Positions 11,218 through 59,159 of a DNA stretch of 64,000 nt are shown here, one piece after another. The DNA comes from Minisyncoccota bacterium (GTDB lineage: Bacteria > Patescibacteriota > Minisyncoccia > Phycocordibacterales > Phycocordibacteraceae): the NCBI GenBank assembly GCA_041660025.1, contig JBAZXD010000001.1, forward strand, positions 305,851 through 369,850, read 5' to 3'. Numbering within the stretch: position 1 is the first letter of the stretch; every line of letters begins with the position of its first letter. The notes under the pieces are model-generated. The model was given only the letters and a program-made list of their open reading frames with translations. It did no database searches and was not told where the DNA came from. The translations under genes and the position numbers were made by a program.

Positions 11218-12315
11218 ATGAAGTTCGTCTCCGGCGACCGAATGTTCTTTCTGCTGGTGCTCGGGATCGTACTCACCGGTCTCGCTATATTTTCTTCCGC
11301 AGCGCTCGGCCTCCTGGCCCGGGAGAGCAGTACCGTGTCGCAGGATATCCTGCTTCAAGCCGGACTCGGCATCGGGCTCGGATTCTTGGCGCTTATGCTC
11401 GCCCGCGCGCTCCCGTTCGCGTACCTGAAGCCTCTCGCTCCGTATCTCTACGCGGCATCCATCCTCTTCACGGCGCTCGTCTTCGTTCCCGGTGTCGGAC
11501 TGACCGCGAACGGGGCAACGCGCTGGATCGACCTCGGCTGGACGACCGTCCAGCCGGCGGAGTTCCTGAAGATCGGCTTCGTGCTCGCGCTTGCGTGGTG
11601 GCTCGCGCCGCGCGCGCGCGAGCTCGCGAACGTGAAAAAAGGATTGCTCCCGTTCATTTTCATCCTCGCGTTCCCGACCGTCCTCCTGCTCGCTCAGCCG
11701 AATACCTCGACGACCCTGCTCATCATCGCGACGGGTATCGTTATGTATTTTGCGGCAGGAGCGCCGTGGCGCGACTTCGGCATCCTGGCGGTGGTCCTCA
11801 TCATCGCGCTCACCACCGTCGTCCTCGCACGACCCTATGTGCTCGAGCGCGTGAAGACATTCCTGGACCCTTCCGCCAACTCGCTCAGTAGCGGCTACCA
11901 GATACAGCAATCGCTTATCGCCGTCGGGAGCGGCGGTCTCCTCGGCAGAGGGTTCGGGCAGAGCGTCGAGAAGTTCAATTATCTGCCAGAGCCTTCCGGC
12001 GATTCGGTGTTCGCCGTGTTCGCGGAGGAGACCGGATTCGTCGGCGCGCTCTTCCTCCTCCTCCTCTTCGTCGCGCTCGCGGCGCGCGGCATCGTGATAG
12101 CAGGGAATTCACGCGACCTCTTCGGCGGTCTGCTCGCGCTCGGACTCTCTTTCATTATCATCCTGCAGGCGTTCATCAATATGTCCGCGATGCTCGGCAT
12201 CATCCCGCTCACCGGACTGCCGCTCCCGTTCGTCTCGCACGGCGGTACCGCGCTTATGGCCGCTCTCATTATGTGTGGCCTCATCCTCAACGTCGCGGCT
12301 CATCGCAGGTCATAA
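11218..12315 (+). CDS. ftsW: SEDS-family peptidoglycan polymerase FtsW/RodA
   Basis: 10-TM SEDS architecture located between mraY and murG. Confidence 0.88.
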   Translation: MKFVSGDRMFFLLVLGIVLTGLAIFSSAALGLLARESSTVSQDILLQAGLGIGLGFLALMLARALPFAYLKPLAPYLYAASILFTALVFVPGVGLTANGATRWIDLGWTTVQPAEFLKIGFVLALAWWLAPRARELANVKKGLLPFIFILAFPTVLLLAQPNTSTTLLIIATGIVMYFAAGAPWRDFGILAVVLIIALTTVVLARPYVLERVKTFLDPSANSLSSGYQIQQSLIAVGSGGLLGRGFGQSVEKFNYLPEPSGDSVFAVFAEETGFVGALFLLLLFVALAARGIVIAGNSRDLFGGLLALGLSFIIILQAFINMSAMLGIIPLTGLPLPFVSHGGTALMAALIMCGLILNVAAHRRS

Positions 12316-12321
12316 TCCCGA

Positions 12322-12394
12322 GCCGACATACCGAAAAGAGGTAGTAAGACTTGGCCTAGCGGCCCGGAGCGCGACCTCTTTTCGGTATGTCGGC
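12322..12394 (+). repeat. Structured element copy A: 19-bp perfect stem enclosing a conserved 35-nt core (GTAGTAAGACTTGGCCTAGCGGCCCGGAGCGCGAC)
   Basis: Left arm gccgacataccgaaaagag and right arm ctcttttcggtatgtcggc are perfectly complementary. The identical core recurs at 58471..58505 inside a different stem. Confidence 0.6.
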
Positions 12395-12418
12395 GAAGGT
12401 ACGCTATACTACACACAT

Positions 12419-19582: not shown

Positions 19583-19855
19583 ATGGCATCAACGAAAGCA
19601 GGCGGCTCAGCGAAAAACCTTAATACTTCAAACCCGAAATACCTCGGCGTGAAGCTCGCCGACGGTGCATCGGCCCGCCCGGGAATGGTCATCGTCCGCC
19701 AGCGCGGCACGAAAATTGAGGCCGGCAAGAATGTGCGCGTCGGTCGCGACCACACGCTCTTCTCAATCGCGAACGGCACCGTCGCCTTCCGCACTCGCCG
19801 CAAGACGAACTTCACCGGCCGCATCATCTCCAAGACCGTCGCCGACGTCGTCTAA
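19583..19855 (+). CDS. rpmA: 50S ribosomal protein L27
   Basis: GGSAKN...LGVK..DG......IIVRQRGTK..AG.NVG.GRDHTLF pattern of L27. Confidence 0.92.
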   Translation: MASTKAGGSAKNLNTSNPKYLGVKLADGASARPGMVIVRQRGTKIEAGKNVRVGRDHTLFSIANGTVAFRTRRKTNFTGRIISKTVADVV

Positions 19856-19861
19856 CTTCAA

Positions 19862-19903
19862 ATAAAAAACACGGCGCCGGGAGGCGCCGTGTTTTTTATT
19901 TGA
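19862..19903. terminator. Bidirectional rho-independent terminator between rpmA and rplI
   Basis: ataaaaaacacggcgcc-ggga-ggcgccgtgttttttatt: a GC stem flanked by an A-run on one side and a T-run on the other. Confidence 0.6.
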
Positions 19904-19905
19904 AG

Positions 19906-20349
19906 TTACTCTGCTTCGATGGTTATAGAAAACTTCCCGAACGTATCCGCGGCCGCGACCGGGATATCGAACGTGCCGAGCTCCTTGATCGGCTTCTCGA
20001 GCTTGATGGCGTCTTCGGGGAGGTCGATATGCGCCTGCTCCTTCGCCGCCGAACGTATCTCGGGCTCCCCTACCGCGTCGTAGAGATGTCCCTTCTCGTT
20101 CGCTTTCACCTTAATCACGATACGCGTCTCTGCGAGCGTACTGATGTTCTGCGCGAGGAGTGCGGTATCGAGCGCCGAGCGGTCGGTCCTCTGCTTGCGG
20201 CGCGTCTCGGCCTCCTGGCTCGCTCCGGAGGTCGCGGGGATCGCGAATTTACCCGGAATGAGGTAATTAAGCGCGTAGCCGTCCGCCGCCTCCACTGCGT
20301 CATGAGCGCGCCCCATACCCTTCACGTCTTTGATCAAAATAACTTTCAT
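19906..20349 (-). CDS. rplI: 50S ribosomal protein L9
   Basis: MKVILIKDVKGMGRAHDAVEAADGYALNYLIP matches the L9 N-domain; start placed at the MKVIL Met. Confidence 0.88.
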   Translation of the reverse strand: MKVILIKDVKGMGRAHDAVEAADGYALNYLIPGKFAIPATSGASQEAETRRKQRTDRSALDTALLAQNISTLAETRIVIKVKANEKGHLYDAVGEPEIRSAAKEQAHIDLPEDAIKLEKPIKELGTFDIPVAAADTFGKFSITIEAE

Positions 20350-57079: not shown

Positions 57080-58426
57080 ATGAAAGAGATTGTGCAAGAT
57101 GGTGCACCGGTGCTCCGCGAGGTCGCAAGCCCCGTGCCGGAAGAGCTCTTCGGGACGCCGGAACTCGCTCAGATTATCGCCGATATGACCGAGGCGCTCG
57201 ACCGCGAGCTCGAGGGCGTGGCGCTCGCCGCGCCGCAGATCGGCGTTTCCTATCGCATCTTCATCGTGCGGAAGGACCGCACGATAGACGTACATCGTGA
57301 TGAGTCGCATAAACTTTCTTCGCCGAAAGAGTTGGCACCCGAGGTTGAGGTATATATCAATCCTGAAATATTGAAGACCTCGCGGAGGCGTGCGGTGGTG
57401 GACGAGGGCTGTCTCTCAGTCCGCGGCATCTACGGCTCAACCAAGCGGCACGAGCGCGTCACGCTCCGCGCGCGGCGGGTCGACGGTTCCCGCTTCGAGC
57501 GCGGCGGCGGCGGCATAATGGCGCAGATATTCGAGCACGAAACTGACCACCTCAACGGCATCCTCTTCATCGATCATGCTGAACAGCTCATCAGTATCCC
57601 GCGCGGGTCGGCGCATCCGTTCATCTATTTCGGTACGCCACAGGTCGCGAGCGACACACTTGAGATCCTTATCGAACGCGGTTTTCTCCCCTCGCTCGTG
57701 GTCACCTCGCCGGACGCCCCGAAGGGTCGCGGTCTCGCGCTCGCTTCATCAGAGACAAAGGTGTGTGCACTCGCACACGGCATCCCCGTCCTCACCCCCG
57801 AGAAGCTCGATGCCGAAATAATCGCTACTCTCGCCGCACTCGGGGCTGAGTACGCTATCGTCGTCGCCTACGGCAAGATATTCCCCGACGAGCTTATTAA
57901 GGCCTTCCCGCTCGGGGTACTGAACGTCCACTACTCGCTCCTACCGAAGTATCGCGGCGCGACGCCGCTTGAGGCCGCATTGCGCGCGGGCGAGACCGAG
58001 ACCGGAGTCTCGGTCCAGAAGATGGTGCGAGAGCTCGACGCCGGCGACATCATTGCTCAGGAGGCTGTGCCAATCGCTCCCGGCGAGACTGCACGCGAGC
58101 TGCGCCCGCGGCTCATCAAGCTCGGCGCGACGCTCCTCGCCGATACGCTCCCCGCCTATCTTGAAGGCAGTGTCGTCTCCGTTCCCCAGGATGCAGCGCT
58201 CGCTTCGCGCTCAGGGAAGTTGAAGAAGGAGGACGGTCTTCTCGCGCTCGACGCGCCCGCTGAGGAGAATTGGAACAAGTACCGCGCATATGCGGATAGC
58301 ATCGGCACGTATTTCTTTGAAAACGGCAAACGGATGAAGATAACGAGCGCAACATTTAAAAACGGGAAATTCCTCATCGAACGCGTCATCCCCGAAGGCA
58401 AGCGCGAAATTGAGTACAGAAGTTAG
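57080..58426 (+). CDS. def-fmt: Peptide deformylase / methionyl-tRNA formyltransferase fusion protein
   Basis: One 448-aa ORF. Residues 1-~180 carry Def motifs (GVALAAPQIG, EGCLS, QIFEHETDHLNG). Residues ~181-448 carry Fmt motifs (FIYFGTPQVA N-terminus, HYSLLPKYRG, C-terminal beta domain). No stop or start at the junction. Confidence 0.8.
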   Translation: MKEIVQDGAPVLREVASPVPEELFGTPELAQIIADMTEALDRELEGVALAAPQIGVSYRIFIVRKDRTIDVHRDESHKLSSPKELAPEVEVYINPEILKTSRRRAVVDEGCLSVRGIYGSTKRHERVTLRARRVDGSRFERGGGGIMAQIFEHETDHLNGILFIDHAEQLISIPRGSAHPFIYFGTPQVASDTLEILIERGFLPSLVVTSPDAPKGRGLALASSETKVCALAHGIPVLTPEKLDAEIIATLAALGAEYAIVVAYGKIFPDELIKAFPLGVLNVHYSLLPKYRGATPLEAALRAGETETGVSVQKMVRELDAGDIIAQEAVPIAPGETARELRPRLIKLGATLLADTLPAYLEGSVVSVPQDAALASRSGKLKKEDGLLALDAPAEENWNKYRAYADSIGTYFFENGKRMKITSATFKNGKFLIERVIPEGKREIEYRS

Positions 58427-58451
58427 AAGTCAATTTCAAAACGTCCACGAG

Positions 58452-58524
58452 AGCCGGTGCGAAGAAAAACGGTAGTAAGACTTGGCCTAGCGGCCCGGAG
58501 CGCGACCGTTTTTCTTCGTACCGG
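58452..58524 (+). repeat. Structured element copy B: 19-bp stem (one G-U) enclosing the same 35-nt core as at 12341..12375
   Basis: Left arm gccggtgcgaagaaaaacg and right arm cgtttttcttcgtaccggc. The arms differ from copy A but remain complementary; the core is identical. Confidence 0.6.
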
Positions 58525-58546
58525 CGAACGAGTTTTGAAATGATTT

Positions 58547-58909
58547 CTAGCGGCCGAAGCGCAGGATGCGCTTGATCGCCGCGCCGCCGCGCTTCATCAG
58601 CCGTTGCGTGCGGCCGCGCGAGCGCCGTATCTCGGCTTCGAGCTCGCTCCGCACCCTGTCCGCCGCGCTCTCGGGATTCGGCTTTACCGCTTCCGCGTGG
58701 AAGACTTGGTCGTTGATGATGAGCCGCGCGACGAGGCGGCAGGGCTCCGACGAGCGCCCCTCGGGCGGCGCCTCCTCGACCTCTATCTCGAGCAGAGCGC
58801 GGTCGCCCTCCTCTCCGAGCAGGCGGAGCGGTGCCGCGAGCTTCTTCTCGATAAGCGCTTCGGTCTCGGGACTCAGCGTAAACTTTGTCGCCTTGATCGT
58901 AATGTTCAT
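58547..58909 (-). CDS. hpf: Ribosome hibernation promoting factor (HPF/RaiA family)
   Basis: MNITIKATKFTLSPETEALIEKKL matches the S30AE family; start placed at the MNITIK Met. Confidence 0.85.
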   Translation of the reverse strand: MNITIKATKFTLSPETEALIEKKLAAPLRLLGEEGDRALLEIEVEEAPPEGRSSEPCRLVARLIINDQVFHAEAVKPNPESAADRVRSELEAEIRRSRGRTQRLMKRGGAAIKRILRFGR

Positions 58910-58937
58910 AGGAGCGGTATCAGCTGGTAAGCAAAGC

Positions 58938-59159
58938 TTATTCGATACTAACACTTATCATTTTAGCGCGTGAACGGTGTCCTGTCAGGATGCGCACACT
59001 GCCTAATGGCTTTCCGAGGCGCAGGGCAACGAGCTCGCGCACACGCAGATTGGCGCGATTCCCGCTCGCCGGCTCCCGCACCGAGATGAGGAGCGTCTCT
59101 CCCTTCTCTTCGACCTTCTCCTTCTTCGCATCCGGCGTGACGAATATTTTGATATACAC
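58938..59159 (-). CDS. DUF167/YggU-family protein
   Basis: IKIFVTPDAKKEKVEE..LLISVREPASGNRANLRVRELVALRLGKP matches UPF0235. Confidence 0.7.
   Translation of the reverse strand: MYIKIFVTPDAKKEKVEEKGETLLISVREPASGNRANLRVRELVALRLGKPLGSVRILTGHRSRAKMISVSIE

Follow-up and report, generated by a model that had tools for sequence, protein, structure and literature searches.

Hairpin repeats with a fixed tip and freely covarying stems, so far found only in CPR bacteria, are probably mobile palindromic elements

Two short hairpins, copy A and copy B, lie 46 kb apart on the forward strand of a 64,000-nucleotide stretch of DNA from a Minisyncoccota bacterium (GenBank assembly GCA_041660025.1, contig JBAZXD010000001.1, positions 305,851 to 369,850; hereafter the window, in whose own numbering coordinates are given). 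They belong to a large and apparently undescribed family of palindromic repeats, found so far only in the Candidate Phyla Radiation (CPR, Patescibacteria), in which a tip of 29 nt is nearly fixed in sequence and the stem that carries it covaries. The family probably consists of mobile palindromic elements that are selfish, are gained as whole hairpins and are copied via a folded single strand read by an enzyme.

A 35-nt string, GTAGTAAGACTTGGCCTAGCGGCCCGGAGCGCGAC, is found unchanged at two places in the window and no others, 12341-12375 and 58472-58506, each time on the + strand, as reported by an earlier sequence-only reading that had placed copy B one base too low. No further match was present in the window at up to three mismatches, 100 shuffles gave 0 matches, and an unfiltered covariance-model search of the window recovered copies A and B and no third. 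Copy A (12322..12394, +) is a hairpin of 73 nt, composed of a perfect 21-bp stem and an apical module, which scores 76.6 bits (E = 2.6e-16) and whose 21-nt arms (12322-12342 and 12374-12394) are 100% complementary. Copy B (58453..58525, +), also of 73 nt with a 21-bp stem, scores 75.5 bits, and its 21-nt arms (58453-58473 and 58505-58525) are 95% complementary, the sole exception being G58459 opposite T58519, a G·U pair on the + strand. The inverted repeats first described, perfect in A and with one G·U in B, are real, and their true length is 21 nt each rather than 19; the 35-nt core, identical as a string, resolves into the invariant module of 29 nt (12344..12372 in copy A, +, GTAAGACTTGGCCTAGCGGCCCGGAGCGC, delimited by position-wise conservation in 115 copies; 58475..58503 in copy B, +) and three covarying stem pairs.

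The arms of A and B have 10 of 19 positions in common, and each difference is compensated. A GA...GA(A) foot is present on both, in copy A as GA at 12320..12321 and GAA at 12395..12397 (both +), and in copy B within an internal loop that separates the main stem from a 9-bp outer helix, read from the sequence, whose strands are TTTCAAAAC (58434..58442, +) and GTTTTGAAA (58532..58540, +); the predicted fold of copy B reaches 58424-58548. The RNA folding energies of the 73-nt units are -47.9 kcal/mol for A and -46.6 kcal/mol for B (z against shuffles of -8.8 and -7.1), and the complementary strands of both give weaker folds. Copy A lies between ftsW (11218-12315) and murG (from 12419; both by Pfam), starting 7 nt past the FtsW stop codon and ending about 25 nt before MurG, and copy B lies between convergent genes, 26 nt past the stop codon of a Def-Fmt fusion (57080-58426) and ahead of an HPF-like gene on the - strand (58547-58954; both by Pfam). 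The placement of both directly 3' of + strand genes, at these distances, agrees with the initial description, as does the lack of a U-tract after the full hairpin.

To establish the range of the family, a species-dereplicated genome collection (GTDB species) was searched with a 20-mer out of the central core, GACTTGGCCTAGCGGCCCGG, which matched more than 118 stretches from at least 76 assemblies (counted by accession prefix). The taxon labels among the matches listed were all Patescibacteria/CPR or unclassified, and the lineages with the core include Paceibacteria, Kaiserbacteria, Adlerbacteria, Nomurabacteria, Peribacteria and Saccharibacteria, the last of these including oral Nanosyncoccus and ruminant-gut genomes. 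Metagenomes, searched with another and less strict pattern, yielded more than 120 contigs. In a viral collection of 2.9 million contigs neither the 35-mer nor the 20-mer query had any match, and a viral origin or a phage attachment site was rejected on this result. A search of Rfam 15, suggested at the outset as a check, matched no family: the whole window at the gathering threshold gave three tRNAs and nothing else, copy A at E <= 10 gave chance microRNA-type hairpins only (best 23 bits against a cut-off of 52), and 18 related loci gave tRNA and rRNA only. Searches of the full-text literature on the tip sequence and on CPR hairpins, repeats and non-coding RNA returned unrelated matter only, with no description of the family, and preprints from 2026 on intergenic features made no mention of CPR.

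In a tip-anchored alignment of 115 copies, the family layout is GA, a covarying stem of 20-45 bp, the invariant 29-nt apical module GUAAGACUUGGCCUAGCGGCCCGGAGCGC, the returning stem and GA(A), with a total length of about 75-110 nt and a modal hairpin of 73 nt (38 of 141 copies), as in A and B. The module comprises 29 positions, GU(A/U)(A/G)GACUUGGCCUAGCGGCCCGGAGCGC, each holding 1.6-2.0 bits except for two variable positions, compared with 0.0-0.3 bits at outer arm positions, and its structure consists of G-C and U·G closing pairs, a 4x3 purine-rich internal loop, a 7-bp helix that includes a U/C mismatch, and a UAGC tetraloop. Next to the module, 62 of 113 copies have a purine-purine mismatch, the inner stem has a conserved G-C pair at the fourth position out (104 and 89 of 115), the five positions after it are rich in A on the 5' side and in U on the 3' side, and the outer stem has a median of 21-22 pairs and a maximum of about 45. 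The arms show a family-wide consensus, GA-GCCGGC...GAAAAAG, and 49 of 141 copies have GA...GA(A) around the stem, where less than 1% would be expected. Within one Peribacteria genome, all seven copies have different stems. A complete CPR genome of 805 kb (OY970216.1) has at least four copies.

Pairing is kept despite this divergence of the arms, as the comparison of A with B had first indicated. Across 113 copies, 88.9% of cells are paired, compared with 66.5% in shuffles; covariation scores 0.528, with shuffles at 0.136 and slid controls no higher than 0.215; double changes are present in 15 of 16 outer pairs; and the same structure was predicted independently by RNAalifold. The apical helix was tested by an unbiased N3...N3 search of metagenomes, which recovered 102 canonical GGCC/GGCC helices, 13 double compensatory GGGC/GCCC helices, 7 single changes, two being wobbles, and 1 chance match. 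These results support selection of the hairpin for pairing, and nothing was found of what the sequence-only reading had named as counter-evidence, namely cores without inverted repeats, an Rfam family or insertion-sequence terminus, or arms that are not complementary.

The stems further indicate which strand is folded. When wobble pairs were counted with a strand-symmetric stem walker that accepts G·T and A·C equally, G·U outnumbered A·C by 93:27 in the genome sample (p = 1e-9) and by 104:38 in an independent metagenome sample (p = 3e-8), and the closing wobbles of the module are U·G in 109/113 and 113/113 copies, on the same strand as the G·U bias. This excess of about 3:1 identifies the element's own + strand as the folded molecule, the strand that had been proposed from the single G·U of copy B. 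The bias is alike in every gene-orientation class, and in intragenic copies that are antisense to the mRNA the element strand holds 15 G·U pairs to 3 A·C, from which it follows that the selected fold is not in the host mRNA.

Placement relative to host genes was assessed in slices of about 8 kb around related copies, in which flanking genes were scored by codon usage; simpler open reading frame (ORF) calls concur. Orientation with respect to the flanking genes fell into the classes (-,-) 21, (+,-) 18, (+,+) 12 and (-,+) 6, and within operons antisense placement is at least as frequent as sense placement. Many intergenic copies lie about 0-10 nt from a stop codon, and many are between convergent genes. 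In the 50 nt upstream, aligned on the hairpin foot, no promoter was apparent (at most 0.15 bits, and a -10-like hexamer without positional enrichment), nor is there a sigma-70-like site near copy A or B, and an independent small-RNA gene was rejected on the lack of a promoter at a fixed upstream distance. All-against-all clustering of the 411 neighbouring ORFs at about 115 loci found no family in more than five loci, the recurring clusters being the same gene neighbourhoods in different genomes.

The element lies on the C-rich strand at 60 of 96 loci (p = 0.018), and an explanation in terms of replication strand was set aside on the weakness of this bias and on a locus (L052) that holds two opposite copies 3.2 kb apart. 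An origin from tRNA or transfer-messenger RNA (tmRNA) was likewise rejected, the best local alignment to 128 predicted tRNAs and tmRNAs being no better than for shuffled modules. The K-turn, hammerhead (CUGANGA...GAAA), sarcin-ricin loop, selenocysteine insertion sequence and signal recognition particle (SRP) domain IV consensus motifs gave no fit by eye to the covariation-supported register.

A recent gain is visible at copy A. Three relatives with fully syntenic dcw clusters and FtsW 95%, 88% and 83% identical have hairpin-free ftsW-murG spacers of 19, 19 and 15 nt, compared with 104 nt in the window. Alignment places the extra block, tcccGA followed by the 73-nt hairpin and GA(a) (approximately 12316..12397, +), between the stop codon and ...GGTA, and the empty sites contain neither arm, which marks copy A as the recent gain of a complete hairpin. 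Copy B is an old copy: its site is occupied in two genomes with Def-Fmt 72-75% identical, at one locus by a hairpin with a related stem (L067) and at the other by one with a 56-nt structured insertion in the tip (L115).

Some copies have entered genes. About 14% of copies (roughly one in seven) lie inside long ORFs that are open for hundreds of nucleotides on both sides, and open frames contain 14 of the 100 copies that could be tested in the metagenome sample. By flank homology, a test that is independent of ORF continuity, 15-16 copies are intragenic, and the frame is open in all of them. Translation and Pfam place the inserts, of 25-30 residues, within or between domains: between Walker A and Walker B in RarA/MgsA, in the DALR domain of ArgRS, and in IF-2, an Aminotran_5 (IscS/NifS-like) enzyme, MiaA, a PrmC-like methyltransferase and a Wzy_C O-antigen ligase; ValRS is a further host, identified not by Pfam but by its own sequence and by alignment with homologues in related loci. 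Four of the six frames of the module are free of stops, and exactly those four are in use, read as VRLGLAARS and KTWPSGPER in sense and as ALRAARPSL and RSGPLGQVL in antisense. The inserts are presumably translated.

The same protein loop has been entered in different orientations or frames in RarA (L059 compared with L020 and L095), MiaA (L090 compared with L048) and Wzy_C (L036 compared with L018). Of 120 RarA homologues from CPR, the majority have this loop short and empty and about 20 have an intact or decayed insert (decayed examples read RSRPLGQALPF and VGLGACDRSA), in at least two orientations or frames, a pattern indicating that a tolerant site has gained the element repeatedly and that the inserts then decay.

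A possible explanation for these observations, and the one that we consider probable, is that the family spreads by way of a folded single strand that an enzyme reads, the mobilising step itself being one that we purely infer. A source copy would be exposed as a folded strand of one polarity, as single-stranded DNA (ssDNA) or as RNA, and a trans-acting enzyme would read the tip by sequence and the stem as a helix only, and would then copy or insert the hairpin at a new site. Landing would occur between genes, mostly a few nucleotides from a stop codon and in either orientation; among landings in coding sequence, the survivors would be those that are in-frame, stop-free and in tolerant protein loops. 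Selection would act on the intermediate rather than on each inserted copy, keeping the tip and the wobble bias, and selection of this kind would account for a frozen tip, freely covarying stems and the tolerance on one strand of G·U (G·T) but not A·C. After insertion, a copy would decay or persist, some copies may be put to secondary host use at gene ends, and filled alleles may also spread between related genomes by homologous recombination. More tentatively, and as a possibility rather than a probability, the tip may be the site of recognition and catalysis for an undescribed mechanism of mobilisation, in which an enzyme, or the RNA itself, kept across all CPR, would read the structured loop on a folded single strand and copy whole hairpins, including into coding DNA. 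Such an enzyme could be a housekeeping nucleic-acid enzyme parasitised by the element, which would explain the constancy of the tip across the superphylum.

Several observations weigh against mobility of this kind. Among the ORFs neighbouring about 115 loci, no transposase, reverse transcriptase or HUH enzyme linked to the element was identified. Conservation of 29 nt across a superphylum is far stronger than in any selfish repeat known to us. Copy A is the only clean filled/empty pair among close relatives, and it does not allow a target-site duplication to be recognised: its junctions, TAA/tccc GA...GA a/ggta, show at most a 2-nt AA repeat, and the empty sites lack the GA. A search of the metagenome contigs for a donor of copy A with a 20-nt arm gave 0 matches, and transposition of an identical unit has not been directly seen. 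At occupied equivalent sites whose flanking proteins are 70-75% identical, the tip is intact and the stems are about 30% diverged, a pattern reminiscent of purifying selection acting in place and so suggestive of a host function; the point is weakened, though not removed, by recombinational transfer of filled alleles and by the use of an exact 20-mer to find the copies. Finally, 40% of copies have A- and T-tracts around the inner stem and resemble bidirectional terminators.

The tracts lead to the strongest of the alternatives, which nonetheless appears unlikely, namely that the hairpins are cis-acting RNA elements of host transcripts, serving as 3'-UTR or intercistronic stabilisers, RNase sites or bidirectional terminators, with the tip bound by a host protein. 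A T-rich tract (at least 5 of 7) follows the inner stem in 53 of 119 copies, and an A-tract 5' together with a T-tract 3' is present in 48 of 119; the stem part of the covariance model also matches an ordinary terminator-like hairpin at 19862-19899 of the window. The proximity of many copies to stop codons, the tip kept intact at occupied equivalent sites as stems drift, and the two invariant U·G wobbles within the module would all fit such a role. However, the tracts are absent from 60% of copies, a consensus terminator scan of the window called neither A nor B, and the outer stem covaries although it lies beyond the T-tract and thus outside the terminated RNA. Further, orientation to the flanking genes is unbiased or slightly antisense, there is no conserved promoter, 13-14% of copies lie within ORFs, in-frame and in both orientations, and the G·U bias follows the element strand rather than the mRNA strand, including in the copies antisense to mRNA (15 versus 3). 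The suggestion in the sequence-only reading of a 3'-UTR RNA element belonging to the upstream gene is not upheld as the explanation of the family; a role as a bidirectional hairpin or terminator may be a secondary use by the host but cannot be the defining function.

A second alternative, which we judge improbable, is that the copies are pseudogenes, akin to short interspersed nuclear elements (SINEs), of one essential hairpin RNA gene present in every CPR genome, with the tip frozen by the master RNA. This would suit conservation of the tip at the level of rRNA and tRNA across the superphylum, the strand-specific tolerance of G·U whatever the insertion context, the decay of inserted copies and the larger structured variants at L111 and L115. 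A single master, however, would be expected to give uniform stems, whereas stems differ widely within one genome (10/19 between A and B, and seven different copies in Peribacteria). No copy with a conserved promoter or synteny was seen, no reverse transcriptase is linked to the element, and there was no match to SRP RNA, 6S RNA, RNase P, Y RNA or other Rfam models, nor to tRNA or tmRNA. Retro-copying is, moreover, rare in bacteria.

Mobility might instead be confined to the module of 29-37 nt, homing into the single-stranded loops of existing hairpins or terminators so that the stems are local sequence, but this carries little weight with us. In its favour, the site between the L27 and L9 genes holds a plain 26-bp hairpin in the window and, in a relative, a diverged hairpin that bears the module and whose A-rich arm is similar; foreign sequences inside the module or loop (L111 and L115, L077) show that loops are prone to insertion; and several genomes combine a uniform module, inner stem and A/T tracts with outer stems that differ. 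The L27/L9 hairpins are otherwise unalignable, however, and independent gains fit them equally well; the arm consensus and the modal length of 73 nt (38/141) are not expected of local sequence; and the intragenic empty sites in RarA and ValRS are free of hairpins. For copy A the idea, raised at first as insertion of a 35-bp module into an existing hairpin, fails, because the empty site of the three relatives has neither arm.

The two remaining alternatives can be dismissed more briefly. It is very improbable that the family is a double-stranded DNA site for a nucleoid, replication or segregation protein with an incidental palindrome: its orientation is independent of transcription and the conserved tract spans 29 bp, as such a site would allow, but strong covariation and the one-strand bias of G·T over A·C require single-strand folding, cruciform extrusion is unlikely on kinetic grounds with a 29-nt spacer, copies in coding regions decay there, and the two copies of L052 are 3.2 kb apart in opposite orientation. 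It is scarcely credible that the copies are tiny introns or bypass elements, excised from mRNA or skipped in it: their presence in essential genes and their compact, highly conserved structure would suit this, but removal would lift the constraint under which all 15-16 intragenic copies are frame-open and use only the four stop-free frames (a chance of (4/6)^15, about 0.002, before lengths divisible by three are required), and half of the intragenic copies are antisense to the mRNA.

The mobile-element reading can also be set against known systems. The closest in behaviour are the Rickettsia palindromic elements (RPEs), which Ogata et al. reportedly described in 2000 (Science 290:347). As in that system, the CPR repeats are small palindromes that lie both between genes and in-frame within essential genes, where they add a tolerated peptide, have no linked transposase and occupy one lineage of reduced-genome, host-dependent bacteria. 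They differ in having no sequence relationship to RPEs, a free stem, a fixed tip of 29 nt and a superphylum-wide span, RPEs being 100-150 bp long and conserved over their whole length within one genus. The CPR family behaves like RPEs, and membership by descent is implausible, the matches listed being all from CPR.

Repetitive extragenic palindromes (REPs), with their bacterial interspersed mosaic elements and REPINs mobilised by REP-associated tyrosine transposases (RAYTs, Y1 HUH enzymes), resemble the CPR family in being extragenic hairpins, often at gene 3' ends, in both orientations and with long vertical persistence, in the recognition of REPs as folded ssDNA, and in a short foot tag, GTAG in REPs and GA here. 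The REP stem is conserved and its loop or spacer variable, whereas the CPR family has the reverse; REPs are specific to a species or genus and essentially extragenic, and no RAYT is linked to the CPR family. Membership was rejected on stems that are not conserved within a genome (A versus B, and the seven Peribacteria copies) and on the missing GTAG/CGTC foot tag, the foot being GA...GA(A) and the GTAG of the core being a covarying part of the inner stem (AGGG, TGGG or GGAG elsewhere).

The origins read by HUH Rep proteins in circular Rep-encoding ssDNA (CRESS-DNA) viruses, geminiviruses and rolling-circle plasmids likewise have an invariant loop and a variable paired stem that one enzyme reads in single-stranded form. 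They are single sites of small replicons with loops of 9-11 nt, unlike a structured 29-nt tip in multiple chromosomal copies, and the CPR family has no Rep gene nearby and is absent from viral contigs. Miniature inverted-repeat transposable elements (MITEs, such as Correia/CREE, ERIC, BOX and RUP) are similarly short, non-autonomous, hairpin-forming repeats beside or within transcription units. MITEs keep their terminal inverted repeats as transposase sites and show target-site duplications, whereas the CPR termini vary except for the GA foot and a loose GCCGGC in one subfamily, with no duplication evident at the junctions of copy A, and membership was rejected on terminal arms that hold 0.0-0.3 bits. 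Bidirectional terminators share the A-tract, GC-rich inner hairpin and T-tract seen in 40% of copies, and the position of many between convergent genes, but not an invariant loop, a long outer stem past the T-tract, or copies in ORFs and between divergent genes. A CRISPR array was excluded, A and B being solitary and 46 kb apart and the rare tandems (L033, L054) being partial self-duplications, as was an integron attC site, in which the pattern of an invariant centre and variable ends is reversed; copies of the CPR family also lie inside housekeeping genes. The opening judgement that the hairpins are not REP-like, MITE-like or CRISPR thus holds in tests of each class. On its sequence features, the family would belong among interspersed palindromic mobile elements, in which its inverted conservation, with a fixed loop and a free stem, and its superphylum-wide invariance would be unusual.

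Variation within the tip and the stem was also observed. One variant class is a base pair shorter (GUUGAAUYGGCCUAGCGGCCCGAGCGC), and other variants have extra hairpins inserted into the tip. A near-identical insertion of about 56 nt lies within the tip, just after its ...GGAGCG, at two loci of one genome, CAZJZB01 (L115:5237-5360, +, and L111:2010-2140, -), and is a hairpin itself, with compensatory changes between its copies (CCUG/CAGG versus CCCG/CGGG); it was not found elsewhere in the fetched loci or in viral contigs, and is either a nested small tip-targeting element or a larger structural variant. At L077:1215-1284 (-), the 5' half of the apical helix is replaced by a perfect 16-nt palindrome, TCCGCCAGCTGGCGGA. 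At L054:2480-2620 (-), a 43-nt unit consisting of the first 14 nt of the module and the 5' arm occurs about three times before a complete copy, and at L033:1790-1920 (-) two copies lie 84 nt apart, the first without most of its 3' arm; both look like partial tandem duplications by slippage or recombination at GACTTGG. Two oppositely oriented copies at L106:590-1130, separated by about 370 nt, enclose a region without genes in which there are, at about 711-736, an ordinary terminator-like hairpin, AAAAAGCCGGCGAGAGCCGGCTTTTT, and, at about 835-850, a tRNA-like T-arm, GGATTCGAACCCTC, for which Rfam made no tRNA call.

Other observations concern the sites of the hairpins and the remainder of the window. 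In a relative with FtsW 84% identical (L121:9766-10859 and L122:3920-5013), the ftsW-murG spacer holds two small ORFs of 83 and 163 aa with no Pfam match on record. The 448-aa Def-Fmt ORF upstream of copy B joins Pep_deformylase (residues 1-169) to Formyl_trans_N and Formyl_trans_C (185-430; Pfam), and the same fusion of peptide deformylase and methionyl-tRNA formyltransferase is found in loci L067 and L115. In valS, a filled allele (L111, 2380-2660) and an empty one (L001, 4090-4330), with neighbouring proteins 86-88% identical, differ by the element plus about 15 flanking codons; these codons resemble those of the filled allele of L041, and the two filled alleles are in genomes whose neighbouring proteins are 69-75% identical, a mosaic which suggests that filled alleles move by homologous recombination.

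At 19853-19908 of the window, a palindrome of 26 perfect base pairs around a 4-nt loop (TAACTTCAAATAAAAAACACGGCGCC gg.. GGCGCCGTGTTTTTTATTTGAAGTTA) spans both stop codons of two convergent genes, identified as those of ribosomal proteins L27 and L9 by synteny with locus L119. In L119 (7869-7924, -), from the relative with FtsW 95% identical, this site has a diverged family hairpin in a spacer that is otherwise unalignable, and gene-end hairpins seem to turn over fast in the window lineage. Between 27000 and 33000 (-), the window has long internal direct repeats, with 152-nt units spaced 546, 432 and 537 nt and shared motifs of 56-58 nt, that are probably one or more large repetitive surface-protein genes; GC content is about 0.50-0.52 at 28-32 kb and GC skew reaches +0.22 at 32-34 kb.

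The CPR make up a large share of bacterial diversity and have tiny genomes with little non-coding DNA, and to our knowledge almost nothing is known of their mobile or regulatory non-coding elements. The tip provides a near-perfect sequence marker of 20-29 nt for CPR, present in dozens of species of different classes and absent from the viral collection. Insertion of the elements into genes would represent the remodelling, by selfish or semi-domesticated DNA in minimal genomes, of essential proteins such as aminoacyl-tRNA synthetases, IF-2 and RarA, and such inserts can produce annotation and alignment artefacts in the host proteins. Insertion polymorphisms, such as that of copy A, absent from a relative with FtsW 95% identical, are possible strain markers and recombination probes in uncultivated populations. 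The fixed loop, free stem and one-strand wobble bias together point to a single-stranded intermediate and a specific reader protein, for which the hairpin could serve as bait in pull-downs. If true, a loop-directed mechanism would constitute a new class of mobile element and offer a new handle on CPR genome biology.

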